Below, piece by piece: positions 9,548-28,204 of a stretch of DNA of 64,000 bases; the stretch's first letter is position 1, and every line of letters starts with the position of its first letter. The stretch comes from an uncultured bacterium (lineage in GTDB: Bacteria > Fidelibacterota > UBA2242 > JAFGTP01). The notes below the pieces were generated by a model, which did not search any database, was not told where the DNA came from, and saw only the letters and a program-made list of their open reading frames with translations. The translations under genes were made by a program, and so were the position numbers. The DNA lies in NCBI GenBank assembly GCA_964498725.1, contig CAZCHS010000004.1:26876-90875 (forward strand). The letters are read 5' to 3'.

Positions 9548-10484
9548 TTTTAAGTCCCTCGTAGGCCAATGCAATCTCGAGATTACCGGCAGGATAATGG
9601 GTTGTGTTATAAACACGGACCTTTTGTAAATTTTCCTGTATTTCCAGGTCGGTTTTGTCGGGATCATGGTGGAATAGTACCAACTTTTTCACGCCGGCGG
9701 CATTTGCTAAGTCCACACCTTTTTCGCCGGTGCAATGCCCATAGTCTTTTTTCTCCGCAATTTCCTCCGCGCTAAATTGGGAATCAAAGATCAGGACATC
9801 ACCGTTTTTGCAAAAGGATTCCATCTCCGGAGTGACAGACTCAAAAAAGAGATCAGTCATGTAAATAACTGACTTATTCTCCTGGCTCAACTTGTAGGCA
9901 TAGGATTTTCCGGGATGATTTTGCAATAAATGGGTGATTTCACAATTATCAATTTTAAAAGTATCACGGGATAAATGGTAGAAGGATTTTTTGGCTTTTA
10001 ACAATTCAAATCCCACAGGAAAAAAGCGGTGGTCCTGCTGATATTCCAGGCGCAGTTTTAGCTTTTCCAAAGGACTATAAAATTTTAAATGGGATTTTTT
10101 ATTATGGGCGGGTTGAAAAAAGGGTAATCCGGAAATATGGTCCCAATGGGTATGGGAAAGAAAAATATGAAATTCATGGTTATATTTTTCCGGATGCCTT
10201 TCAATATATTTTCCCAGGGGCTTCATGCCACTGCCCATATCCATAATCAGGTTTTTATCTTCGGTGTTTATTTCAATACAGGAAGTATTTCCACCGATAG
10301 AGCCAAAATCCAATGGAGAAAGACCCTCCAGGAATTTCCGCAATTTATCATTGTCACTGAGTTTTTCATGAGATTTTTTTTGTGCCAGAAATATTAATTT
10401 CTCTTTGATTTGCTCTGTTGATATAGGTGTCGGAATAGAACCGCGAACACCCCAAAATTTTATTTCCATAAATTTCTTTGTCAA
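9537..10484 (-). CDS. MBL-fold metallo-hydrolase
   Basis: LSHTHWDHISGLPFF is an HxHxDH motif. Later H and D ligands are present (LFHHDPD). Confidence 0.8.
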   Translation of the reverse strand: MTKKFMEIKFWGVRGSIPTPISTEQIKEKLIFLAQKKSHEKLSDNDKLRKFLEGLSPLDFGSIGGNTSCIEINTEDKNLIMDMGSGMKPLGKYIERHPEKYNHEFHIFLSHTHWDHISGLPFFQPAHNKKSHLKFYSPLEKLKLRLEYQQDHRFFPVGFELLKAKKSFYHLSRDTFKIDNCEITHLLQNHPGKSYAYKLSQENKSVIYMTDLFFESVTPEMESFCKNGDVLIFDSQFSAEEIAEKKDYGHCTGEKGVDLANAAGVKKLVLFHHDPDKTDLEIQENLQKVRVYNTTHYPAGNLEIALAYEGLKITL

Positions 10485-15544: not shown

Positions 15545-16576
15545 CTAGAAACCGACACTAATGGAAAAGTATTGATTCGCATCAAACAATTCCATCGGTC
15601 TGAAAGCATAATCAAAATATACTTTAGTGCCCGCCATGGCCATATTGAGTCCCAAACCATAGCTTAAGTCAAACTGACCATCCTTGTCCCATTCCCAATC
15701 ATCAGGATAGAGATTCTGGATATAACCGGCTCTGAGAAGGAGAAGATTATTAATATTCACTTCCCCACCCAGATTTAATTTGTCCAGTTCCAGTGTATTT
15801 TTACTGTATTGACTAAAAACTGCGACAGATGCCGCATTACTTAATTTTCTGGTATAAGCCACACCCATATTCATACTGGTTGGCAATTCCGCCGAAGCCA
15901 TGTCCAGTTTTGTTTTGCGGGTTGTGGCATTGGGATTTGCAAAAGGTATATTGGAATCAAATTCAATTTCCGGCCCGTCGAATGTCATGTCGGTACCGAT
16001 ATTTTTCATAGTAATTCCAAAATCCAGACCAAAATTTGTCCGGTATTGCAAACCAAAATCAAATCCCATTGCGCTGGCCGACATGTTTCCAATGTTCTCA
16101 CTAATAATTTTAATATTGGAGCCAAAGGAGACTTTATTTGTCATTTTTTTGGAATAGGTTAATCCGGCAGTCAGGTAATCAGGACTAATTTCCTGTCCTG
16201 TACCTTCGGGGGAATTGATTGTCGTTACTTCTATTTTTCCAATATTGAGGGATTGTATACTGACACCGATTATTCCCAGCCGGCCCAGATTGACACCGGT
16301 GGTGATATAGGAGACTTTCATGTCAGCAAAATAATCCAGGTAACTGAAACTGGCCTCTGCCTGCTTTATATATGCCAAACCGGCCGGGTTCCAGTAAATT
16401 GCTTCTGTTCCATCTACCTTTGCAATATCAGCGCAACCCAGGGATACATTTCTGGCCCCCATTGGAATCAATAATTCAGGCGCGGCAGCGGTGCCCAAGC
16501 GGGTTCCGCTGGCAAAAACCACCTGTGTAAATAGTAGTAATAATAAACATATAATTTTAATATCGTTTCTTTTCAT
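15545..16576 (-). CDS. PorV/PorQ-family outer-membrane beta-barrel (T9SS cargo shuttle-like)
   Basis: Signal peptide (LLLLLFTQVVFASG). AAAPELLIPMGARNVSLGCADIAKVDGTEAIYWNPAGLA resembles the PorV/UPF0164 N-terminal motif. Alternating beta-strand pattern and C-terminal ...YFSISVGF. The start is set at MKRNDIK with GGAGG upstream. Confidence 0.6.
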   Translation of the reverse strand: MKRNDIKIICLLLLLFTQVVFASGTRLGTAAAPELLIPMGARNVSLGCADIAKVDGTEAIYWNPAGLAYIKQAEASFSYLDYFADMKVSYITTGVNLGRLGIIGVSIQSLNIGKIEVTTINSPEGTGQEISPDYLTAGLTYSKKMTNKVSFGSNIKIISENIGNMSASAMGFDFGLQYRTNFGLDFGITMKNIGTDMTFDGPEIEFDSNIPFANPNATTRKTKLDMASAELPTSMNMGVAYTRKLSNAASVAVFSQYSKNTLELDKLNLGGEVNINNLLLLRAGYIQNLYPDDWEWDKDGQFDLSYGLGLNMAMAGTKVYFDYAFRPMELFDANQYFSISVGF

Positions 16577-16617
16577 AATTTTTACCTCCATAATTAGGTT
16601 ATCAGAAAAACTGACCA

Positions 16618-19600
16618 TTAGTAGGTATCCAGACGTTCGTTTGGAGCAAAGATCGCGAGTTTGCCGATTTTTTCGCCAACTTTTGGAATATCCACATGAT
16701 AAACATAGATACCACTGGCGACTGGCAACCCATACTCATTGCTCAAATCCCACTGGGTCAGCGTGGTGGTGGGATCGTCTTTTTGGATTTTTTTGATCTG
16801 ATTTCCGGCCAGATCAAAAATTCTGATCGTACATTTTTCAGGCAGGTTCGTAAACTGTACCCAACGCTGGAAAATATTCATTTCACCGGAATGATAGCCG
16901 TAATATGGGTTTGGTACAACTTTGATATTGTTAATATCATCCTTTTTATGGTTGGTGGAATCAGTGGCGGCCTTCGGCGCTTCAAAGGTGTAATAATCAT
17001 TTTCACTATTTGGTTTAGCTGAATTCCATCGGACAACTGTTCCTGGCGCCGGCGGTTTACCCCAAATACCACCTGATCCCGGTGACCAGAGATCATAGTA
17101 CATTGAAAAAACAATCCTGCCAACAGAATGCCCGGAATCCCATAAAGACCCCCAGAAAATATTATTTAAAACATTATCGCCGCCATCGGCTGTGAGTTCT
17201 TCTTCATCATAGGGATAATTACAGATATAGAGACGTTCCCAACCGCTCAGAGCGCCGCCAACATAGGAACCTTCTCTTTCCTGGCTCCAGTACCAATCAT
17301 TGTCATCATCAATAATTCCGGCAATTACCTGTGTTTTTTCTCCGGATGGTGTAATTTTCCATACTCTGAAAGGCAAGCGGCCATTGGTTTTGTGGATTGT
17401 TTCAGCACCACCCAAAGTATCAGCTTCTTTCCAGCCATTGACGAACCAATCGCCATTAGCCGAACCTGCTTCACTGGCCCAGGCATTAAAAATCAACTGA
17501 CCTTCGGTTTCAGGATTTTCGACAAATTCAATAACAATATCATTCGGTGTGGTATTTCCACGCCAATCCCATTGTGTTAGTTGCGTTACCGGATCACCGA
17601 CAGCAGCACCATCGGCAGCAACAATAAATGCCGGCCTCCCCCCCTCATAATGGTCCGGAGCATTTAAACTGGAAATAAGATTGTCATCCATGACTTCATT
17701 CCAGTCACTCGGGCTGACCTGTACAAGTTCAACGATACTTGGGGGTGCGCCAGCCACTTTTACCATCAGACCATCGGTAATATTATAGGCCTCATCATTT
17801 CTTTGGTTGCGCTGATGACTTAACAAAGTATCATTTTCAGTCTGGTCATACAAGTACCATTCTGATTCATTGTTTTCATAAAAACCAACCTTATATTCAT
17901 GGCCGCTTAATTTTAACGGGTCCACAACGAGTGCTGTCATACTTCCCTGGCTTTCCGGTTTTGTTGTATCTTTTCTCATATGAACAACAGGAATAGTATC
18001 ACCAAAGGAGGCATAGGTTCTGATACCCAGACGGCTTTGCGGTGTTACCCTGACAATTGTGGGAGCACTTTCAAGTATTTTCGGCGCACCGTATTCACAA
18101 TAGCCTTCGGCAACCACTCCGAAATAATATTCTTTACCATTCACAAGCATGTTGCCGACATTTCCAACCGTTCCATTTGTGTTTTGTGTAATTCTGATCA
18201 TCCTGTTGCCGGTATAGGGAGATGCATCAGAAGCGTCATCCACCTGCCATTGGTCTATCAATACAGGATCAGCACCACTAGCATCGGAATACTGATATAC
18301 CGAATAGCCAAGAAAATTATAGGTGGAATCTAAAATAACTTTTTCCATATTATCCATAATTACAGTATCGCCATAGGCTTTGGCAACGATCGGGTCAGTT
18401 GAAGAATAAAAAGTTCCGTCTTCATTATATTCAGAGTTTCCGGTCCAGTTCAGAATAATTTCCTGGGATTTTTCACTGTATTCGATTTCCGGTGATTTCG
18501 GATTTTTCGCCAATTTAAAATTAACATCATAAGCCAGTTGTGCCAGACGGTCAACTTCTTTCAATTTCTGAACACTATTTAGATTATCAGTTCCACGAGC
18601 CATAATATATCCGGCAACAATCACTTGTACACCCGGTTCGCCAAAATCAGGAATGCCATTCATATTCAGGTCCCGATTTGGATTATTGGCTTCCCAGTAT
18701 GTCATGTCAAAGGGCCCGGTTGTCATAATAAACCGTCTGTCATCTTCATTGGAATCATTCCATCCGCTACCGGTTATGGGGTCACCACTAAACATAAAAT
18801 TGGCCGGTTCGGCATTCGGGTCAGTGCCAACGCCGCCCTCAGTGATTTTATTGCCGTCACGCCAGATAGCCCGCATATAATTATAGGCGTCCTGCCCGTT
18901 ATCGGGATTGCCGTTTGTGGGATCATCATTGTTATTATAATAAACAAAAGAAGTCATTTTTAACTTTTTCTTGTCATATAATACGGTTCCATCAGGAAGA
19001 ACAACTTCAGCGCCCTCTTCATCAACAATTGGCCCCTGAAAAAAATCAATTCCGGCAGCCGGTGGCGCAGAGCCATAATTCTGATCATCATTATCAGCAT
19101 TATAGCAGTATCCCAGTCCTAATAAGGTATCACAACCAACAAAATCATCAGTGGCATCACCAATGTCAGGATCGGTCCAGATTGTAAAATACGAATCCTT
19201 CCAATCAGTACCGCTCTTATTGGCAATCGTCCATTTGGTGAACATCATATCACCAAGCGCATCAGCCCGGTTGTAAGCCCAAACATATTGCCTGATTTCC
19301 GCATTTAATCTGTTGGTTTTAAACATTGTGTGATTAGCGAGGTCATTCCACACACAAAAGGCGGAAAAATCACCCAGCATCATCGGTTTTCCCTCTTCAT
19401 CAACGGGTGCTCCCTGTTCCACCGGCCAACTGGACCAATCCCCCACATTGGATGGCCTTAAAACATACCACCTGTAATCAGGATCATTGGGATTTGCCGG
19501 TTCATCAGGTGCGATAATTTCACCGGGTTGAAATTCTGTGGCATCATGAATCACACCAGCGATTCTTACTTCACCGTCAACACGGGCACCCAGCCACTGA

Positions 19601-19851
19601 CCGGCGCCAAACATAGGACTTAATCCGGAACCCTTTGGCCATTCCAGTCCCCAATTACTTGCCGGTACATCATGAAACCAGATGCCATTATTACGTAAAA
19701 ATCCATTTAGCCGGTTGGCGTCCATCCAGATGTCACTGGTCATGGCTGTTTTCGCCAAGGGGCCAATTTTTTTATTGTTATTTTTTTCTCCCATCAAAAA
19801 ACTTGATAACAGAAAAACCATTAATAAGGTATATACTATAATTTTTCTCAT
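16618..19851 (-). CDS. 1077-aa secreted protein of unknown function with T9SS-type C-terminal sorting domain
   Basis: Signal peptide without a lipobox. The C-terminal ~95 aa (KVVPNPYYGY...CTIRIFDLAGNQIKKI...WDLSNEYGLPVASGIYVYHVDIP..GKLAIF) fit the T9SS CTD / FlgD-Ig-like pattern. I recognise no catalytic motif in the body. GGAGG RBS. Confidence 0.6.
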   Translation of the reverse strand: MRKIIVYTLLMVFLLSSFLMGEKNNNKKIGPLAKTAMTSDIWMDANRLNGFLRNNGIWFHDVPASNWGLEWPKGSGLSPMFGAGQWLGARVDGEVRIAGVIHDATEFQPGEIIAPDEPANPNDPDYRWYVLRPSNVGDWSSWPVEQGAPVDEEGKPMMLGDFSAFCVWNDLANHTMFKTNRLNAEIRQYVWAYNRADALGDMMFTKWTIANKSGTDWKDSYFTIWTDPDIGDATDDFVGCDTLLGLGYCYNADNDDQNYGSAPPAAGIDFFQGPIVDEEGAEVVLPDGTVLYDKKKLKMTSFVYYNNNDDPTNGNPDNGQDAYNYMRAIWRDGNKITEGGVGTDPNAEPANFMFSGDPITGSGWNDSNEDDRRFIMTTGPFDMTYWEANNPNRDLNMNGIPDFGEPGVQVIVAGYIMARGTDNLNSVQKLKEVDRLAQLAYDVNFKLAKNPKSPEIEYSEKSQEIILNWTGNSEYNEDGTFYSSTDPIVAKAYGDTVIMDNMEKVILDSTYNFLGYSVYQYSDASGADPVLIDQWQVDDASDASPYTGNRMIRITQNTNGTVGNVGNMLVNGKEYYFGVVAEGYCEYGAPKILESAPTIVRVTPQSRLGIRTYASFGDTIPVVHMRKDTTKPESQGSMTALVVDPLKLSGHEYKVGFYENNESEWYLYDQTENDTLLSHQRNQRNDEAYNITDGLMVKVAGAPPSIVELVQVSPSDWNEVMDDNLISSLNAPDHYEGGRPAFIVAADGAAVGDPVTQLTQWDWRGNTTPNDIVIEFVENPETEGQLIFNAWASEAGSANGDWFVNGWKEADTLGGAETIHKTNGRLPFRVWKITPSGEKTQVIAGIIDDDNDWYWSQEREGSYVGGALSGWERLYICNYPYDEEELTADGGDNVLNNIFWGSLWDSGHSVGRIVFSMYYDLWSPGSGGIWGKPPAPGTVVRWNSAKPNSENDYYTFEAPKAATDSTNHKKDDINNIKVVPNPYYGYHSGEMNIFQRWVQFTNLPEKCTIRIFDLAGNQIKKIQKDDPTTTLTQWDLSNEYGLPVASGIYVYHVDIPKVGEKIGKLAIFAPNERLDTY

Positions 19852-19883
19852 AAATTTTCCTCCAATCCAAAATTGAACATTTA

Positions 19884-22800
19884 TTATAATTCCAGACGCA
19901 AGCCAAGTCGAATTTGTCTTGGAGTTGCATAATTACTGTAGTCCCATGCTCTCATTTTGTACTGTTTCTTTTCAACTTCTGTTAGATTATTCCAGTATAC
20001 TTTGCCGGGATTGGTGCCCAGATAGCCGGTACTATTGGGTGTTCCGGTTGTTATGTATACATTTTTCACATTTTCTTTATTCAGCAGGTTCAGAACTGTT
20101 ACATAGGCGGTCATTTTTACAGGTCCGACAGTAAACCGTTTATCAACCTTCAAATCCATTTGCTGCATCCATGGTGTTCTTTCCGCGCCCACAGCTGAAA
20201 GCGGTGTCTCGGAAATGCCTTCATTATCATTCCGGCCGCCAAAAGGCTGTGTATTTGCAATTTTGGCTAAGGTATAGGGATTACCTGAATTGAATGAGAA
20301 CATCATGTTAACACCGGCATTGTTCAGCAAATTAACCGGAGCATCATCAGGGCCATATCGATAATCCAAAACAATGCTACCGCGATGACGCTGTTCAAAG
20401 TCAAGGGGCATTGCAAATTTTGGAAAATTTCCATCTTTGGACCCATCCTGCCAGGCAATATCAAAATTAGAATCAGCATTGGAGCCGGTTCCTTTGGCAA
20501 TTTGAAATTCATAATTTGCATTGATGGACAGATTGTTAAATCTGCGCATGTTAAAAATCACATCAAAACCCTTGATCGTACCAAAATCGCCATTATCCGT
20601 AAAAGCAATTTCAGTCGCGTCAGTCAGATGTGGAAATACCAGGATCAGATCTTCGGTTTCCTTGAAGAAGGTGGTTAACTGCAAGGAAGCATTTTGTCCC
20701 AGCATTTGTTTAAACCCAATTTCATAGGAAGTTGTTTTTGGCGGTCTCAGATTAGGATTGTCAATGGTTGTAAAATAACCGCCACTGGAAACATAAGTGT
20801 TTAGATAAAAGGGACTCAAATACAAATCCCGTAATTGCGGTGCTTGATAGAATATACCATACTGTGTATGAAACACAGTACTTTCAGTGATCGGAAACGA
20901 AAAACCAAATCGCGGACTAATGTAATCATAAGCTTCGGAAGGTTCTGTATCTTCTTTATCAAACTGGCCGTTTCCGCCAAACATGCCACTACCTGGAATG
21001 TAGTTACCATCTTTATCAACTCGCTTGTCAATCTCTTTGAACATCCAGGCATTTGGATCAATCCTGTCATAACGAAAACCAACATTCACAATTATATTTT
21101 CATACTCGATCTTATCCTGAAGATAGCCGCTGATGATGATTGGATGATAAGGTTCCTGTTCATTAAAACCGGAAATTGGATTGCCGGCTTCATCACGAAC
21201 CACGTCATCAAGAAAACTTTTTCCGTCGCCTACTTCTTTGCCGTCAATATCATAGCCATAAAACCGAATATCTGTGGATTGATATTTTTCCAGTTCCGTA
21301 CCATATTCTCTGGCATAGCTTTCCGGTGCCAGGGCACGATACTCTCGTAATGTATGATACTTATATTCAAAACCGGTCTTAAAGGTATGATTTTCATTAT
21401 ACTGATGGGTTAAATCAAAATCAATTGCCCAATAGGTTGTTCTGTTTTTAAAATAATCATTAAAGGGCACACCAGGCGCAAAAAAGTCAGGCTCCAGTGT
21501 TCCATTGAAACGGGTCCCTTCAAAAGTATTTAACCCCCGGTAATATCTTTCATTGTAAAGTTCCTCTAATTCCGGATCACCAACATAGAAAATATTTTGT
21601 TCCGGATAGGGTTGTTCAGCCGCACTACCATATTTTGTCAGATCATCACCAAATTTCCTGTCATAATGTTTTCGCTCAGTATCAAAGTATTTTAATCGAA
21701 AATCATAAAATGTGGTGTTGGAAATTGTATGGGTCAAAGCTGTATTCAATGACAATGTATTGGATGACATTGTGGGAGCGTGGGCCTGATTGAAAAAATA
21801 CTGCCTGTGCATGGCGTCATCATTGAAAGGATCTGAAGAAAATTCACGCACTGTTTTGGCAAACCCGGTTTTCAGAGCCATGTTATCAGTGAATTGTAAT
21901 TTGAATTTTCCATTCCAGGCCCAGACATCATTAAAATTACCGGGAATTCTACCATTAAAATTAAATTTATGAGTACCCAGATCCAATGTATCGCGTTCAG
22001 TATAGGTGATCAACGATGTGTCCATCTGTCCCATCTCATCATTATAAGCAATGCGGATGCTGTCGAATTCATTGTCATAGGTAAACATCTGGTCATAAGT
22101 TCTGGATTCCAGTCGATAAGGGTTTTCAGCCCAGCCGTAAGATGGTGTCCAGTCGGCCTGATATTGTCTTGTACCACTGACAAAGAAAGTGTGGTTCTTA
22201 CCGGGGATAATGGGGCCACTCAAAGTCGCCACGTATTCATTGTGTCCATAAGAATAAGCGCCCAAAATTTTATCATCAGCGCTTAAAAATTCATCGGTGT
22301 CAAAGGACAGGGATGTCTTATACTCTTTAGTACCAACATTGGTTGTCAAGGCGACAATTCCGGACATGGCATCACCATACTCAGCATTGAAACCACCGGT
22401 CTGAACACTCATTTCTTCTATGGCTTCGTTGGGCAGGTAGAGCCGGACAGCACTGTTATAGGGGTCATTCACCAAAACACCGTCAATATATACAGCTGTT
22501 TCTGCTGCGCGGCCGCCACGAACATTCATATCATTGGAGTTAGCCGTTTTGACCACACCGGCTGTGGCGGCGGCAATTTCCTGCATGCCTCTGACAGGAA
22601 GATTTGAAATATCTTCTGCTGTTTTAATCACATTGGTGTTTGTTTCATCTTTCCTGATAATTTTTCTATGGGCAGTAACAAGAACTTCTTCCATATCCAA
22701 AGCGCTTTGTTCCATTTCCAGGTTAATTTCAGTTGTCAAGTCCAATGATACATGAAGATTTTTCATTACGATGGTTTTTTTACCCATATAGGATACTTTC

Positions 22801-23024
22801 AGAGTGTATTCTCCTACCGGCACATTCAGTATCGAATAGTAACCATCCGTGTTGGTCGCGGCACCTGTATTAATGCCATTCCCAGTTACAACAATATTTA
22901 CTCCCGGTAATGGTTCACCGGTTTCTTTATCTGTCACTATTCCTGCGATCTTACCGGTTGTACCGGCAAACAGTACAAAGGGTAGTAAAATGGTTAATAA
23001 CCATAAAATGACGTTTCTTGTCAT
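19884..23024 (-). CDS. TonB-dependent receptor, SusC-sized, with carboxypeptidase-regulatory-like N-terminal domain
   Basis: Signal peptide. GKIAGIVTDKETGEPLPGVNIVVTG..TDGYYSILNVPVGEYTLKVSYMG is a CarboxypepD_reg-like domain. A plug region follows (VLVTA...NVIKTAEDISNLPVRGMQEI), then a long beta-barrel-like body. AAGGAGG RBS. Confidence 0.8.
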   Translation of the reverse strand: MTRNVILWLLTILLPFVLFAGTTGKIAGIVTDKETGEPLPGVNIVVTGNGINTGAATNTDGYYSILNVPVGEYTLKVSYMGKKTIVMKNLHVSLDLTTEINLEMEQSALDMEEVLVTAHRKIIRKDETNTNVIKTAEDISNLPVRGMQEIAAATAGVVKTANSNDMNVRGGRAAETAVYIDGVLVNDPYNSAVRLYLPNEAIEEMSVQTGGFNAEYGDAMSGIVALTTNVGTKEYKTSLSFDTDEFLSADDKILGAYSYGHNEYVATLSGPIIPGKNHTFFVSGTRQYQADWTPSYGWAENPYRLESRTYDQMFTYDNEFDSIRIAYNDEMGQMDTSLITYTERDTLDLGTHKFNFNGRIPGNFNDVWAWNGKFKLQFTDNMALKTGFAKTVREFSSDPFNDDAMHRQYFFNQAHAPTMSSNTLSLNTALTHTISNTTFYDFRLKYFDTERKHYDRKFGDDLTKYGSAAEQPYPEQNIFYVGDPELEELYNERYYRGLNTFEGTRFNGTLEPDFFAPGVPFNDYFKNRTTYWAIDFDLTHQYNENHTFKTGFEYKYHTLREYRALAPESYAREYGTELEKYQSTDIRFYGYDIDGKEVGDGKSFLDDVVRDEAGNPISGFNEQEPYHPIIISGYLQDKIEYENIIVNVGFRYDRIDPNAWMFKEIDKRVDKDGNYIPGSGMFGGNGQFDKEDTEPSEAYDYISPRFGFSFPITESTVFHTQYGIFYQAPQLRDLYLSPFYLNTYVSSGGYFTTIDNPNLRPPKTTSYEIGFKQMLGQNASLQLTTFFKETEDLILVFPHLTDATEIAFTDNGDFGTIKGFDVIFNMRRFNNLSINANYEFQIAKGTGSNADSNFDIAWQDGSKDGNFPKFAMPLDFEQRHRGSIVLDYRYGPDDAPVNLLNNAGVNMMFSFNSGNPYTLAKIANTQPFGGRNDNEGISETPLSAVGAERTPWMQQMDLKVDKRFTVGPVKMTAYVTVLNLLNKENVKNVYITTGTPNSTGYLGTNPGKVYWNNLTEVEKKQYKMRAWDYSNYATPRQIRLGLRLEL

Positions 23025-23115
23025 AGTTCCTCCTTTTTTAAACCTATTTCATTATTTTTCGATTAATGACTAAGAGAAGTATGTATCCCCCTTCCACTAA
23101 TCCCAGGTCTACATT

Positions 23116-23131
23116 TTCAATACATGTACCA
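23116..23131 (-). promoter_or_regulatory. candidate sigma54 (-24/-12) promoter of the TonB-receptor operon
   Basis: The minus strand reads TGGTAC-ATGTA-TTGAA (consensus TGGCAC-N5-TTGCW), about 90 nt upstream of ATG 23024. The GG and TTG spacing is exact. The -12 C is replaced by A. Confidence 0.35.
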
Positions 23132-23434
23132 AAGGGAAAATATTCTTCATTTCACATTAAAATATCATAAAACAAATATCCCAAATTCATGAAAATAATG
23201 ATATTACCTCTTAATTTCTGATATTTAGGAAATACTAAAAAAAAGCCTTCAAATCGGATATTTAAGAAGTTTACTATATTTAGGATATAGCAACTCCGGT
23301 TTATTGGTAATATTATTTTTTTATCATTATCAGGTTTTTTCATTAATCTGTGAAAGAGATAATTGAAAAAGATGGTCAGCTGAATTTTGGAAACAAGTGT
23401 TATTGACTGAAAAAAGTCCATAATCCGGGGCACT

Positions 23435-23494
23435 AAAAAGAAAAAGGAAAGCTTTTATAATAGCTTTCCTTTTTCTAAGGATTAGTATGGTACC
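23435..23494 (-). ncRNA. candidate small RNA, copy 1 (conserved 5' GUACCAUACUAAUCCU + intrinsic terminator)
   Basis: An orphan terminator hairpin (GGAAAGCT/AGCTTTCC, 23446-23469) with a T-tract on the minus strand and no gene to terminate. It lies downstream of a sigma54-like box. A 28-nt block is conserved with copy 2 at 1 mismatch, while the terminator stems differ in sequence but both still pair. Ends are estimated, not mapped. Confidence 0.4.
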
Positions 23495-23504
23495 CTATTT
23501 TTAA

Positions 23505-23520
23505 GTCAATATAAATGCCA
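23505..23520 (-). promoter_or_regulatory. candidate sigma54 promoter of sRNA copy 1
   Basis: The minus strand reads TGGCAT-TTATA-TTGAC. The spacing to the conserved GTACC block fits a start about 12 nt downstream. Confidence 0.4.
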
Positions 23521-23612
23521 AACACTTCTAATAACATCAATTAATTCCTTTTTTCTGGTAAATAACTCGTCATGTTTTTATAATTACCGATACCTGGTGA
23601 ATATTCAGGAAT

Positions 23613-23628
23613 TGGTGTTGAAATTGTC
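23613..23628 (+). promoter_or_regulatory. weak sigma54-like box upstream of the lipoprotein gene
   Basis: TGGTGT-TGAAA-TTGTC on the + strand, about 40 nt before ATG 23670. Weaker match in the -24 half. Confidence 0.2.
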
Positions 23629-23669
23629 AAAAAAATTTAAAAAATAATATAATTTCAGGAGGAATATTT

Positions 23670-24239
23670 ATGAAAAATTTATTAAAAATATCATTTGTCC
23701 TTTCGTTGCTTTTTATGTTCAATTGCACCGGAACCATTAAGCCTCTGGGCTATTTTTCCCTCTACCCTTATTCAAATCCCGCTGCAAATCAAAATCATAC
23801 CACTTTAAATATACTTTTAGGCGATGATGTCAAAAATGATTTCTCAGTAAAATCAACCGGCATAAAAGAAATGCAGGTAAGGGATTTTCGTAAATCTGTG
23901 GAATCCAGTCTTATCAATACCTTTCAAGAAAACTATAAAAATATACGGGTGTGTGAAACAATATCTGGGCAGGGATTAACATTAACCGTCTACCGGATCA
24001 GACCTTTCTGGAAACTTGAAGATATATTCACCCCTTCAGAAACATTAAAGGAACGATATGTTGTCTCTGCCGGCTTTCAGATTGACGCCGCATTATTTCT
24101 TAATGGCAAAAAAATCAAAAGTGTTGTTGACACGATTTACAGTGATGAGAAAATGACAAATACTCACCAGGCCCATAATATTTTTAAAAATGGTTTTGAA
24201 AAAGTCTGTGAAACAATTAACCACCGTCTATTTATTTAA
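23670..24239 (+). CDS. hypothetical lipoprotein (189 aa)
   Basis: Signal peptide with lipobox (LLFMFNCTG). AGGAGG RBS. No recognisable domain. Confidence 0.6.
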   Translation: MKNLLKISFVLSLLFMFNCTGTIKPLGYFSLYPYSNPAANQNHTTLNILLGDDVKNDFSVKSTGIKEMQVRDFRKSVESSLINTFQENYKNIRVCETISGQGLTLTVYRIRPFWKLEDIFTPSETLKERYVVSAGFQIDAALFLNGKKIKSVVDTIYSDEKMTNTHQAHNIFKNGFEKVCETINHRLFI

Positions 24240-24280
24240 ATAGTTAAACTAATCCTGCAAAATTCATAACTAATCAGGTT

Positions 24281-24345
24281 AAAAAAAAGAAAAAGGAAGT
24301 CGCTGGCGCGGTCTTCCTTTTTCTCAGGATTAGTATGGTACGTGT
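24281..24345 (-). ncRNA. candidate small RNA, copy 2
   Basis: Same architecture as copy 1: sigma54-like box, GTACCATACTAATCCTGAGAAAAAGGAAG, a GC-rich hairpin (24295-24317) and a T-tract. It begins about 40 nt downstream of the stop of the sigma54 activator gene, on the same strand. Ends are estimated. Confidence 0.4.
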
Positions 24346-24355
24346 ATATTTTGTA

Positions 24356-24371
24356 TTCAATAAAAATGCCA
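24356..24371 (-). promoter_or_regulatory. candidate sigma54 promoter of sRNA copy 2
   Basis: The minus strand reads TGGCAT-TTTTA-TTGAA. Confidence 0.4.
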
Positions 24372-24411
24372 AAATTTCAGATTATGGCTGTTTTTAAATA
24401 ACTTCTTCTCT

Positions 24412-27400
24412 TTAATTGTTAATATTCAGTTTTTTCATTCGGCTAAACAAGGTTTTTGGATTAATTTTAAGAATTTCTGCCGCACCATTTTCTCCGCTAA
24501 CCTTTCCCTTGGTATATTCTAATATTTTTTCAATGTGACGCCTCTGAAGTTCCTCAAGAGTCAAGAGTGAATCCCCTGTATCGGATCGCCGCTCTTTTTT
24601 CAGGGATTCGAACCACTCCCCCAGTTCCAGAATATCCGCACTACTGACAATAATAGCGCGCTGAATAATATTTTCCAGTTCCCGAATATTCCCCGGCCAA
24701 CGATATTTCATCAGTTTATTGATTGTACTTTGTGGAATTTTTGAGATCGTTTTATTGAACTTTTCACAATACTTATTTACAAAATGTTTTACCAGTAAGG
24801 GGATATCTTCCATCCTTTCCCTGAGAGGCGGTAGATTGATCGGAAAAACATTGAGCCGATAAAATAAATCTTCACGAAACTGTCCGGTTTTCACTTCTTC
24901 TTCCAGGTTTCTGTTGGTCGCTGCGATAATCCGCGTGTTGGTTTGCAGGGTGATGGAATTGCCCAGCCGCTCAAACTCACCATTTTGCAGCACCCGCAAT
25001 AATTTTTGTTGAACTTTGATGGGCAGTTCACCGATTTCGTCAAGAAATATAGTGCCGCCATTAGCCAGTTCAAACCGGCCGATCTTCCGCTTGTTAGCAC
25101 CGGTAAACGCGCCTTTCTCATGTCCGAACAATTCCGATTCAATCAGATTGGGTGGCAGGGAAGCACAATCTACTTTTATAAAGCATTCTTTCCGTCTGGA
25201 ACTACTTTTATGGATCGCATGGGCAAGCAAATCCTTTCCGGTTCCGGATTCTCCTAAAATGAGTATAGTTGGATCAGCCCCGGAAGCAATTTCAATCTGC
25301 TGTAAAATATTTTGCATTTTATTGCTATTCGTGACAATTTCTTTATAATGAATATGATTATTTATTTCTATTTCATGTTTCAAAAAGGTATTTTCATTTT
25401 CTAATTTTATTTTCAGATTTTCCACTTCCAAAAGCGCATGATTTAAACGCTCATTGATCTCATTTTTTTCCTTGATTTGTTTTTGTAATACCAGTTTGCT
25501 CTTTCGAACTTTTCGTGTTCTGTATTGAATAATCAAATATATTGCGCCTGTCGACACCAGTATCAACAGTATTTTAAACCACAGGGTTTTCCAAAAAGGA
25601 TATCTGATTTGAAAATTGATCACTTTCTCCTGTTCATTCCAAACATGGTCAAAATTCGCGGCTTTTAAATGAAAGGTATAGTCCCCGGGTGCTAAATGTG
25701 AATAGGTCAGGTATTTGTAATTTTTGCAATAATTCCAATCCTCATCCACCCCCTCCAGGAAATAAGCCAATTGATTATTTTCCGGAGATACATAATGAAG
25801 ACCGCGAATATCAAAGGAAACAACATCCTGATCATATGAAAATTCAAGCGGGCTTTCAACAGACTGATCGACTATTTTATTAAATACATATAATCCTTTC
25901 ACCTGGGGTATGGCCGGCTTGGGATTTTTTCGAATATTTGAGGGATGAAAATAGGTAAAGCCATTCTTGGTTCCCATTAATATATAACCATTCCGCATCA
26001 GGAAACTGGCGCGCGGCAGAAACTGGCAATTTTGCAATCCGTCCTTGTTAAAATAATTATTGATCTGGCCATCATTGACAGACAACCGGGCAATGCCGTC
26101 GGGAGTGGATATCCACAGTTGACCTTTTCGGGTCGGAACAATAGCCAATATACAATTGTTTATCATGCCATTGGTTTCCAGATAATGACTAAAACGGCCA
26201 CTACTGTCCAGTTTATTCAACCCGCCATTTTCCGTGCCCACCCATATATGGCCATCAAAATCCTGCGTGACAAAATTAATTTTATCGTCACTGATTGAAT
26301 ATCTGTCATCGAAATCATTGCGGTAAGAGACAAATTCCGGTTCCATAGAATTGATCTCTGTACCCGGCAATAGGGAGAGCCCGTATTCCGCTGTACCGAT
26401 CAAAAGATCATTTTCTGTGGTAAAATGCAGCGACGTGATATGTTCGCCACTGATTGCCGACATGAAATTTTCATCGGGAAAGTAATGTAAAAAATTATCA
26501 TATTGTGAACGATAGCGATTTAACCCCTTTTGTGTGCCTACCCAAATATCCCCTTTATTCAAGGGATCACCTACAATTGACGTGATAAAATTGGAACTGA
26601 TACTTGAGAGTTCACGGGCAGAATATTGATAGTGTTTTACTCCCTGTTGCGGAGTTATCTTGTACAGTCCGTTGTTCGTGCCGCACCACAAATTATTTTC
26701 GCCGTCACGATACATGGCTGTGATCACCTGATAATTAAGTTCTTCTGTACCGGGCAGGCGGTAACTACTGTTATCAGAAAAATCATAGACGAATATTCCA
26801 TGATGGGTGCCGATCAGAATAGAATTTGAATTATGCCCGGCAAAGGAGAAAATAACATTGCTCATCAATCCTTTGTCAATTGTATGATGGGAAAAATTCC
26901 GGGCCGGGTAATATTTATAAAGCCCCTTCCCCTTCAGGCTGATCCACAAAACACCGCTGCGATCATAATAGAGTGCATGAATACCAGTGGAATTGTGGGT
27001 TTCAATATTGATTTCATAAGTATGAATTTTAATATTTTCTAAATTTTCCACCGGACTGATTTTGTATATTTTGTAGCCACTGCCTAACCACAGATTACCA
27101 AATTCATCCCTGACCATGGCATTTTTTTGGATATTGAATATTTTCTCTGAAAAATTTTCCTGATCTATTTTAATCAATTCTGTTTTTGCTTCATCGTACA
27201 AATAAAATCCGGCCTTTGTTGAGATTAAAAATAAGTTCTCTTTAACCGGAAAAATAAAATTCACATCAATGGTTTCCAGAAAATGCTCAAGTACCAGTAT
27301 TTTTTCGTTTACAGGAGAAAAATTAAGTTTATAAAATCCGTTATCACCGGTTGCTGCCAGCAGGGTATTATCGTCAATGATCTCTATATCGGTGATATGC

Positions 27401-27882
27401 TGTGAAATTCCGGCAGGAATAATAGCGGTACTGTCAGCATTTAAATTCCAGTAAAATAATCCATCGTCTGTCCCAAACCATATCTGGTAGTTGTCATGGT
27501 CAATCGCGGAAATATTTGCGCTGCCGGTGACGGCTTCCATGAAAAATGAAAATTTTCCGGAGCGAAGGTCAAGAGAGTTTAGGCCTCCAAACTTTGTTCC
27601 AACCAGAAGTACTGAACTATCGGTCTCACAGATATCGGTTATATGATCATCGGAAATACTGTTTTCATTATAGGGGTCAATTTTGTAACTATCATAATCC
27701 TGGCCGTCGTACTTGTACAGTCCGTCCGTGGTACCAAACCAGATATAACCTTGATTATCCTGGTGTATGACATTAATTGATTTATGAAAATCCAATGATA
27801 TTAAGCTAAGTTTATCTTCCTGTCCCAGGAGACAGGTTGACAGAAGCAGACTAATGATAAAAAAATTTATTTTATTTCTCAT
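24412..27882 (-). CDS. membrane-anchored sigma54-dependent transcriptional activator with periplasmic beta-propeller / Y_Y_Y sensor
   Basis: Signal/anchor segment, then about 700 aa of two-component-regulator-propeller-like repeats (recurrent ..W.GT..GL..). A Y_Y_Y-like domain (LAYFLEGVDEDWNY...LAPGDYTFHLKA) and a TM helix (LWFKILLILVSTGAIYLIIQY) follow. Then come a coiled coil and an AAA+ domain with Walker A GESGTGKD, GAFTGA and Walker B FLDEIGE. The C-terminus is a Fis-type HTH. The start is taken at MRNKINFF (ATG 27882); the ORF track's extended start is TTG. Confidence 0.85.
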   Translation of the reverse strand: MRNKINFFIISLLLSTCLLGQEDKLSLISLDFHKSINVIHQDNQGYIWFGTTDGLYKYDGQDYDSYKIDPYNENSISDDHITDICETDSSVLLVGTKFGGLNSLDLRSGKFSFFMEAVTGSANISAIDHDNYQIWFGTDDGLFYWNLNADSTAIIPAGISQHITDIEIIDDNTLLAATGDNGFYKLNFSPVNEKILVLEHFLETIDVNFIFPVKENLFLISTKAGFYLYDEAKTELIKIDQENFSEKIFNIQKNAMVRDEFGNLWLGSGYKIYKISPVENLENIKIHTYEINIETHNSTGIHALYYDRSGVLWISLKGKGLYKYYPARNFSHHTIDKGLMSNVIFSFAGHNSNSILIGTHHGIFVYDFSDNSSYRLPGTEELNYQVITAMYRDGENNLWCGTNNGLYKITPQQGVKHYQYSARELSSISSNFITSIVGDPLNKGDIWVGTQKGLNRYRSQYDNFLHYFPDENFMSAISGEHITSLHFTTENDLLIGTAEYGLSLLPGTEINSMEPEFVSYRNDFDDRYSISDDKINFVTQDFDGHIWVGTENGGLNKLDSSGRFSHYLETNGMINNCILAIVPTRKGQLWISTPDGIARLSVNDGQINNYFNKDGLQNCQFLPRASFLMRNGYILMGTKNGFTYFHPSNIRKNPKPAIPQVKGLYVFNKIVDQSVESPLEFSYDQDVVSFDIRGLHYVSPENNQLAYFLEGVDEDWNYCKNYKYLTYSHLAPGDYTFHLKAANFDHVWNEQEKVINFQIRYPFWKTLWFKILLILVSTGAIYLIIQYRTRKVRKSKLVLQKQIKEKNEINERLNHALLEVENLKIKLENENTFLKHEIEINNHIHYKEIVTNSNKMQNILQQIEIASGADPTILILGESGTGKDLLAHAIHKSSSRRKECFIKVDCASLPPNLIESELFGHEKGAFTGANKRKIGRFELANGGTIFLDEIGELPIKVQQKLLRVLQNGEFERLGNSITLQTNTRIIAATNRNLEEEVKTGQFREDLFYRLNVFPINLPPLRERMEDIPLLVKHFVNKYCEKFNKTISKIPQSTINKLMKYRWPGNIRELENIIQRAIIVSSADILELGEWFESLKKERRSDTGDSLLTLEELQRRHIEKILEYTKGKVSGENGAAEILKINPKTLFSRMKKLNINN

Positions 27883-28204
27883 CCCTTTTACCAAATTATA
27901 TTTTCGTTATCTAAGACCGGCGATTTTTAAAAATAGTTGTCGTAAAAATTAAATTTATTCAGCAAACCGGTATAATAAAATATTTAATAATTTTACTGAT
28001 ATTCAGGTAAAAGTAATGAAGCGGAACATGCAGGAATATAGTCGGAAAAGTCAGGAATATAATTCTTCATAGTCTACAGATTAGAATAATGGAGAACAAA
28101 AAATTTATAGAAGTAATAAACTAACTTTTTTTCTTATTATGAAACATTAATATTTTGTAATCGTATGAAAGTTGTTAATTAAAATTAAAAAAGGAGAAAT
28201 TTTC

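Follow-up and report, generated by a model that had tools for sequence, protein, structure and literature searches.

The window analysed here, a stretch of 64,000 nucleotides from an uncultured bacterium of the phylum Fidelibacterota (GenBank assembly GCA_964498725.1, contig CAZCHS010000004.1, positions 26,876 to 90,875 of the forward strand), carries at 24412..27882 on the minus strand one uninterrupted open reading frame (ORF) of 1156 codons, with an ATG at 27882 and an in-frame TTG four codons 5' of it at 27894. The whole gene encodes a membrane-anchored sigma-54 enhancer-binding protein (EBP) of 1156 amino acids (aa), which resembles a hybrid two-component system (HTCS) outside the membrane and an NtrC1/FhlA-type EBP inside, and which stands in databases under generic names, uncharacterised. 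Judged from its sequence, this ring-forming sigma-54 regulator appears to be active in a form tethered to the inner membrane. A sequence-only reading, made without database searches, had described an HTCS-type periplasmic sensor that is normally wired to a histidine kinase and that here feeds, through one transmembrane (TM) helix and a coiled coil, into an AAA+ domain with GAFTGA and a Fis-type helix-turn-helix (HTH), with neither kinase nor receiver. Domain searches, structure prediction and family alignments agree with that description on each of these points.

Domain order and the membrane junction

The N-terminal residues 1-21 (MRNKINFFIISLLLSTCLLGQ; 27820..27882, on the minus strand like all features of this gene) putatively form a signal peptide or signal anchor, as indicated by hydropathy and by an AlphaFold2 helix at residues 2-18. 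The predicted periplasmic region consists of a double beta-propeller of Reg_prop repeats (residues 22-690; 25813..27819; Pfam 3.9e-27, in 4 stretches) and a Y_Y_Y beta-sandwich (residues 697-759; 25606..25794; Pfam 2.7e-15) with the juxtamembrane motif YPFWKTLWF at its end. Comparison with the PDB by phmmer linked the sensor to 4A2L (1.4e-57), and the top Foldseek match was the periplasmic domain of BT4663 (4A2M_A; E 2e-51, TM-score 0.84, rmsd 4.1 Å), followed by BT3049 and BT4673. The AlphaFold2 model, built from a 51-sequence alignment, gave confident beta structure for residues 22-760 and a single continuous helix for residues 767-840. All homologues keep the roughly 740-residue sensor at full length, yet its identity within the family is only 25-47%, versus 50-78% for the output portion, a faster divergence that would be expected from diversifying ligand specificity.

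Residues 766-786 (25525..25587; hydropathy and AlphaFold2) form the single TM helix and the sole strong hydrophobic segment (KD19 2.23); the N-terminal leader is also hydrophobic. A positive cluster, RTRKVRKSK, follows, and the TM helix continues as a predicted coiled-coil signalling helix (residues 787-845; 25348..25524; AlphaFold2 and heptad periodicity). Across 51 homologues sharing 30-60% identity, the distance from the juxtamembrane Trp of the PPFW motif (W764) to the Walker A Gly (G877) was 111 residues in 47, 112 in one and 113 in three, the 1156-aa protein itself being one of those three. Family-averaged hydrophobicity over residues 790-842 had a heptad-like period of 3.45-3.5, and Pro and Gly together made up 0.56% of this stretch. 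Pro occurred inside the TM helix in just two of the 51 homologues, and conserved helix breakers were absent. The PPFWxTxWF motif and TM helix match those of kinases in the same genome and of Y_Y_Y sensors with other outputs, while the helix directly before the AAA+ domain (…LKNRLQAENIYLQDEIK..HNF..II) recurs in FhlA-like and in PAS/GAF EBPs, and its alignment reaches into the linker of NtrC1. In NtrC1 and DctD, the linker keeps the AAA+ domains as an inactive dimer, and by analogy the coiled coil of the 1156-aa protein would gate its AAA+ domains as those linkers do. This conservation favors a conformational relay, which a rigid, register-conserved helix from membrane to ATPase would suit; a mere tether would not need one.

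The cytoplasmic output begins with a Sigma54_activat AAA+ domain (PF00158; residues 849-1015; 24838..25338), which matched its Pfam model at 3e-70 and 235.7 bits against a cut-off of 20.2, covering model positions 1-167 of 168. It is followed by the AAA+ lid (AAA_lid_14; residues 1021-1101; 24580..24822; Pfam) and a Fis-type HTH (HTH_8; residues 1108-1152; 24427..24561; Pfam, 22.8 bits against a cut-off of 22); the C-terminus is identical among homologues P0003, P0004 and P0005. When compared with the PDB by phmmer, the AAA+ domain together with the helix before it aligned to NtrC1 (1NY5; residues 821-1089 against 117-379, 2e-76). Walker A (GESGTGK) lies at 877, GAFTGA at 924 (nt 25096-25113) and Walker B (DEIG) at 948, and G924, F926, T927, A929, K883, D948, E949, R1003 and R1067 are invariant in the 51 homologues. 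With its catalytic, sigma-54-contact and arginine-finger residues intact, the AAA+ module is predicted to have retained activator function.

Searches with Pfam at E up to 0.1 matched no HisKA, HATPase_c, Response_reg or HTH_18/AraC domain in the 1156-aa protein, and an HTCS of the same genome gave a clear kinase-core match where this protein gave none. Matches to NCBIfam were confined to the C-terminal third and all fell below equivalog cut-offs (NtrC, ZraR, AtoC and similar), the best being FhlA over residues 786-1155 (368 bits against an equivalog cut-off of 830). On sequence-level grounds, the protein qualifies both as a bacterial EBP and as a transmembrane transcription regulator. It has the sensor and TM helix of an HTCS, but the absence of kinase, receiver and AraC domains places it outside that class, and the absence of an N-terminal receiver domain likewise sets it apart from NtrC-type response regulators.

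Adjacent promoters and neighboring genes

Within the 1.3 kb downstream of the gene, its strand carries three -24/-12-like boxes (TGGCAT/TGGTAC-N5-TTGA). The first (TGGCATTTTTATTGA; 24357..24371, minus strand) is 41 nt past the gene's stop codon and the second (TGGCATTTATATTGA; 23506..23520, minus strand) heads another short unit, while the third (TGGTACATGTATTGA; 23117..23131, minus strand) precedes the ATG of a gene for a TonB-dependent receptor by 93 nt. That gene (19884-23024) is the first of a presumed target operon (15545..23024), in which a 1077-aa protein with no assigned function (16618-19851) and a PorV/FadL-like barrel (15545-16618) follow, all on the minus strand. Genome-wide, 108 such boxes were counted (0.03 per kb), 45 of them in the approximately 9.5% of sequence free of long ORFs, a roughly 7-fold enrichment in intergenic DNA; the boxes often adjoin EBP genes. 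The genome also encodes rpoN (Sigma54_DBD match at C71, 3.7e-53) and 14 true EBPs, of which none but the 1156-aa protein has a TM segment.

The 1156-aa protein presumably binds at two palindromes that resemble upstream activating sequences, TTCCTAAATATCAGAA and TTCTTAAATATCCGAT (23216..23268, minus strand), located 85-137 bp upstream of the receptor box. Both are related to TTCTGAAATATCAGAA, which occurs as an exact palindrome beside the 57%-identical homologue L094, at 86-164 bp from the receptor box and 150 bp from a small-RNA (sRNA) box, in both cases on the upstream side; 12 matches were found there versus 0.61 expected, and none of 200 shuffles reached 12. The palindrome was spotted by eye and tested afterwards; unbiased 10-mer enumeration was dominated by A/T-rich words. 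Next to homologues that are only 31-38% identical to the 1156-aa protein (L096, L103 and L104), the core CTGATATTTCAG recurs, mostly as two copies 18 bp apart, approximately 80-135 bp before a -24/-12 box, and a related palindrome type, CCAATATATTGG, takes the same position in L102 and L105-L107. Palindromes of the family mostly begin 5-75 bp from the regulator's stop codon, and tandem palindromes approximately 80-150 bp upstream of -24/-12 boxes were present in at least seven family loci. This arrangement of palindromes and boxes, a classic enhancer layout, argues strongly, on comparative grounds, for a functional HTH and for the adjacent promoters as its likely targets.

The first two boxes head paralogous sRNA-like units, unit 1 at 24280-24371 and unit 2 at 23434-23520 (both minus strand), each composed of a sigma-54 box, a conserved GTACCATACTAATCC block and a terminator hairpin. 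Their ACTAATCC block is complementary to GGATTAGT in the receptor leader (23094-23105), and both the paired units and this complementarity recur in L093 and L094. No Rfam family was matched in 22900-24500. A separate observation comes from L096, a 38%-identical homologue, where a sigma-54 box, a hairpin (AATTGGGAGT...ACTCCCAATT) and a T-rich tail follow the regulator's stop codon (9816-9910); an sRNA beside the EBP gene may thus be a recurring feature with non-homologous sequence. Between the two units of the window is a 189-aa ORF (23670-24239, plus strand) with no Pfam match, 99% conserved in the genome of the same genus that contains L093 and absent from L094.

A TonB receptor lies 3' of the EBP gene in four of five relatives within the phylum, and in the fifth the EBP gene faces one for a GH2-like protein. 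The genomes of the same genus also permit a comparison of rates: the TonB-dependent receptor is 82% identical between the window (19884-23024) and L094 (15913-19002), the regulator 57% and its sensor 47%, so that the sensor evolves much faster than the transporter under its presumed control. In six of six distant members, the first downstream gene encodes a small thioredoxin-fold protein, mostly without CxxC; it is often succeeded by genes for an outer-membrane protein barrel and a beta-lactamase-family protein, and in one case by one for a TonB receptor. L096 carries both the thioredoxin-like gene and a TonB receptor. These thioredoxin-fold proteins of approximately 110-120 aa (L102 10822-11163, L103 10795-11148, L104 11578-11925, L105 9847-10188, L106 9859-10212, L107 9815-10183, L096 10290-10613) include examples with EWSGDAH and DWSGSSI in which CxxC is missing, and beside EBPs of the clade their gene comes first after the sigma-54 box. 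The genome studied here has one as well (C52 15664-15951), next to a cytoplasmic PAS-type EBP, and none beside the window's EBP gene. The thioredoxin-fold protein may be a conserved feedback partner.

Distribution and relatives

The architecture is rare. A search of 5.8 billion proteins returned approximately 95 clusters (90% identity) with the order Reg_prop, Y_Y_Y, Sigma54_activat and HTH_8 in 1150-1300 aa, along with a variant of approximately 1485 aa in which PAS and GAF are inserted after the TM helix; the clusters all belong to uncultured lineages of the FCB group. The database names are 'sigma 54-interacting transcriptional regulator' or 'NtrC family response regulator/ligand-binding sensor domain-containing protein', and the organisms named are Marinimicrobia, Ignavibacteria, Calditrichaceae and Woeseiaceae, the closest named relative being 'Candidatus Marinimicrobia', i.e., Fidelibacterota in current taxonomy. 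A junction query (residues 690-930) against 1.84 billion representatives at 50% identity gave 73 matches at E up to 1e-30, approximately 19 of which had the uninterrupted Y_Y_Y, TM, coiled-coil and AAA+ junction. The full junction was present in six of 301 Fidelibacterota genomes, all six in one order; with two queries it was not found in 301 genomes of the class containing Ignavibacteriaceae, a weak absence, as nine candidates per genome were scored. In a junction-directed scan of species-representative genomes, six of 80 loci among the matches listed were true EBP fusions, from metagenome-assembled genomes (MAGs) of Ignavibacteriales, Calditrichota, KSB1 and unclassified bacteria, and none of the matches listed came from a cultured isolate with this architecture. 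Most of the loci listed joined Y_Y_Y sensors to kinases or PP2C-like outputs. A scan of genome contigs with the full-length alignment keyed on AAA+ patterns and gave ordinary EBPs, and was not used for the survey.

The same sensor is conventionally wired elsewhere in the genome, in keeping with the kinase partnership named by the sequence-only reading: in a full HTCS with histidine kinase, receiver and AraC domains (C26 4376-8536), in a hybrid kinase with Hpt (C132 5480-8482) and in a Y_Y_Y-GAF-PAS kinase directly upstream of, and overlapping, a receiver-type sigma-54 EBP (C16 34800-40413). Y_Y_Y-TM sensors with a PPFWxTWWF junction were also joined to PP2C/SpoIIE-like phosphatase outputs in MAGs of Chloroflexota and other groups (L131, L143 and L150), which is further evidence for the sensor-TM unit as a portable front end.

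Conversely, the same coiled coil and AAA+ domain occur behind other sensors. The junction search recovered them behind 7TMR-DISM seven-helix receptors, behind double SBP_bac_3 domains with a TM helix, behind very short ectodomains with one or two TM helices, and behind cytoplasmic GAF or TPR modules; public proteins that represent other membrane-integral sigma-54 activators include P0115, P0158, P0161, P0160, P0147, P0149, P0169 and P0188. In the AAA+ tree, the propeller family, the EBPs with alternative sensors and one PAS-type EBP of the same genome form one clade, separate from receiver-type EBPs (SH-aLRT 80), and support for the order within it is too weak to tell a single exchange of sensors from many. 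The 1156-aa protein thus belongs to a wider class of membrane EBPs that is apparently undescribed.

Proposed activation at the membrane and known systems

We think it probable that the 1156-aa protein is a one-component, inner-membrane-anchored EBP, gated through its TM helix and coiled coil without a phosphorelay; both the mode of activation and the activity at the membrane are what we infer for it. The protein would be a parallel dimer, as are HTCS and histidine-kinase sensors, and its coiled coil would keep two AAA+ domains ring-incompetent in a manner resembling the NtrC1/DctD linker. Binding of a periplasmic ligand, probably an oligosaccharide or another envelope-derived molecule, would shift the paired TM and coiled-coil helices. 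This shift would free the AAA+ domains, so that approximately three neighboring dimers could form an ATPase ring in the plane of the membrane while still anchored. With its HTH domains on CTGATATTTCAG-type sites, the ring would then remodel sigma-54 holoenzyme at the adjacent promoters, with the TonB-receptor operon and probably also the two sRNA units as targets. Given that these targets adjoin the gene of the regulator itself, insertion of the protein into the membrane during translation could hold the enhancer DNA there.

More tentatively, a general model covering the whole class is possible, although we do not lean toward it: membrane-integral EBPs, with the 1156-aa protein as their founding example, would assemble and fire while anchored, switched by a change of coiled-coil register that comes from interchangeable extracytoplasmic sensors (propeller/Y_Y_Y, 7TMR-DISM, SBP or short loops), and would be limited to promoters in cis, as insertion during translation would hold the locus that encodes them at the membrane. 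In this lineage, the output would include dedicated sRNAs along with an outer-membrane uptake operon.

Several points weigh against activity at the membrane and against the proposed targets. A ring tethered by six N-terminal helices must show its GAFTGA face to RNA polymerase, which poses a geometric problem. The AlphaFold2 model has low confidence in its AAA+ part (pLDDT 35-55) and was excluded from any inference on ring geometry. Promoter calls rest on enrichment and conservation, and almost every box has TTGA or TTGT as its -12 element; the canonical TTGC occurs in four of the 45 intergenic boxes. No palindrome lies within 250 bp upstream of sRNA-like unit 1. Regulator genes often adjoin their targets, so that adjacency is weak evidence for insertion coupled to transcription and translation, and all family members found come from uncultured genomes.

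The geometric problem would disappear if the membrane form were inactive and a ligand triggered site-1/site-2 cleavage, freeing a fragment that hexamerizes in the cytoplasm. The sequence-only reading had raised such proteolytic release as an option; EBPs are otherwise known solely as soluble ring-formers, and some membrane-bound transcription factors are under proteolytic control (TcpP and YaeL references cited in PMC10269533). The fixed TM-to-Walker A spacing nevertheless favors conformational signaling, as neither a constant linker length (111 aa in 47 of 51) nor a conserved heptad register is needed by a mere tether. The TM helix has no conserved helix breakers, and it shares homology, as does the PPFWxTxWF motif, with its counterpart in kinases whose signaling needs no cleavage. 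Moreover, the same module stands behind seven-TM sensors, and for the 7TMR-DISM proteins release by a single cut is unlikely. We consider proteolytic release of the 1156-aa protein unlikely as well.

Alternatively, the protein could be active at the membrane without being gated by its periplasmic domain, either constitutively or through a cytoplasmic partner, the sensor serving only for localization or dimerization, or its main role could be that of a sink or a repressor at the sites it binds. The thioredoxin-fold protein, encoded by the first gene past the EBP's promoter in most of the family, is a candidate for such a partner and speaks for an ungated protein. On the other side, a sensor of some 740 residues that is preserved whole in every homologue and yet diverges fast is receptor-like, the rigid linker argues for coupling, and a sink or repressor is at odds with the invariant GAFTGA, Walker and arginine-finger residues. 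An ungated, sequestering or repressing protein is therefore improbable.

Finally, the genome is a fragmented MAG of 176 contigs, and a frameshift, which the sequence-only reading had also allowed for, a mis-assembly or a chimeric contig might in principle have fused a sensor-kinase fragment to an EBP gene; with a 92%-identical, full-length, collinear homologue among the same neighboring genes in a genome of the same genus, further collinear full-length homologues at 57-60% and 30-43% identity, and the same architecture in approximately 95 independent 90%-identity clusters from many samples, such an artefact is ruled out for practical purposes.

Anchored, conformationally gated activation would bring together features of several known systems. 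In the literature searched, sigma-54 activators are treated as soluble cytoplasmic rings; the portions consulted, which included sigma-54 regulon surveys (PMC3162934, PMC12316311 and PMC4641369) and the largest census of transmembrane regulators (PMC10269533), contained no mention of a membrane-bound one and no description of this architecture, and a passing mention in EBP reviews is possible. That census, by Demey et al. in 2023, covers approximately 50,000 transmembrane regulators; in the parts consulted, Y_Y_Y and Reg_prop are among the commonest sensors (Y_Y_Y in 7.7% of entries), HTH_8 has 72 entries, and 'Sigma54' is absent from the domain tables examined (PMC10269533). The sequence-only reading had seen in the tethering of an EBP a mechanistic question, of DNA recruitment to the membrane or of proteolytic release. 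Tethered DNA-binding regulators have precedent in the HTCSs and in that census; what is new is the assembly of an AAA+ ring at the membrane, and the family raises a clear structural question: in what way a ring held by six tethering helices would contact RNA polymerase and looped DNA there.

Like the 1156-aa protein, the transmembrane transcription regulators ToxR, TcpP and CadC are one-component and act on DNA from the inner membrane, but their DNA-binding domains are of OmpR, AraC and other types and lack an ATPase. LuxO-Qrr and GlrR-GlmY offer a parallel in which a sigma-54 EBP drives adjoining small RNA genes; LuxO and GlrR, however, are soluble response regulators, whereas the sRNA-like units described here match no Rfam family and are predicted only. 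The best full-module matches are the FhlA-like and PAS/GAF-type EBPs of Bacteroidota, with an AAA+ identity of 57-61% and a place in the same AAA+ clade; their sensors are cytoplasmic, and the FhlA score of 368 bits falls short of the 830-bit cut-off. With the NtrC1, NtrC4 and DctD-type EBPs (PDB 1NY5 and 4L4U), the protein shares the AAA+ domain and lid (E approximately 1e-76 to 1e-78) and a helical linker before the AAA+ domain that is able to hold an off-state dimer, but their linker comes from a cytoplasmic receiver domain, whereas here it continues the TM helix and phosphorylation plays no part.

For uncultured Fidelibacterota, Ignavibacteria, Calditrichota and KSB1, these proteins also offer an initial entry point to the sensing of nutrients or of the envelope. 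Because a sigma-54 promoter stays silent when its activator is missing, the architecture suggests a compact, kinase-free sensor design with zero background, which might be re-targeted by swapping sensors at the fixed-length helix.

The closest counterparts on the periplasmic side are the HTCSs of Bacteroides (BT4663, PDB 4A2L/4A2M; BT3049; BT4673); Bacteroides employs sensors of this kind for the detection of polysaccharides, and BT4663 senses heparin. They share the double propeller, the Y_Y_Y domain, the juxtamembrane PPFW motif and the single TM helix. HTCSs are reported to signal through a ligand-induced change within a dimer (PMC11253607). In both systems, one membrane-anchored polypeptide senses outside and binds DNA inside, and both adjoin TonB-dependent receptor loci. 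Unlike an HTCS, the 1156-aa protein has no HisKA, HATPase, receiver or AraC HTH, and it would be an ATP-driven sigma-54 activator that needs a ring, whereas an HTCS is a phosphorylation-controlled, sigma-70-type activator that needs a dimer. The family thereby shows the HTCS sensor module to be a portable 'front end' for non-kinase outputs.

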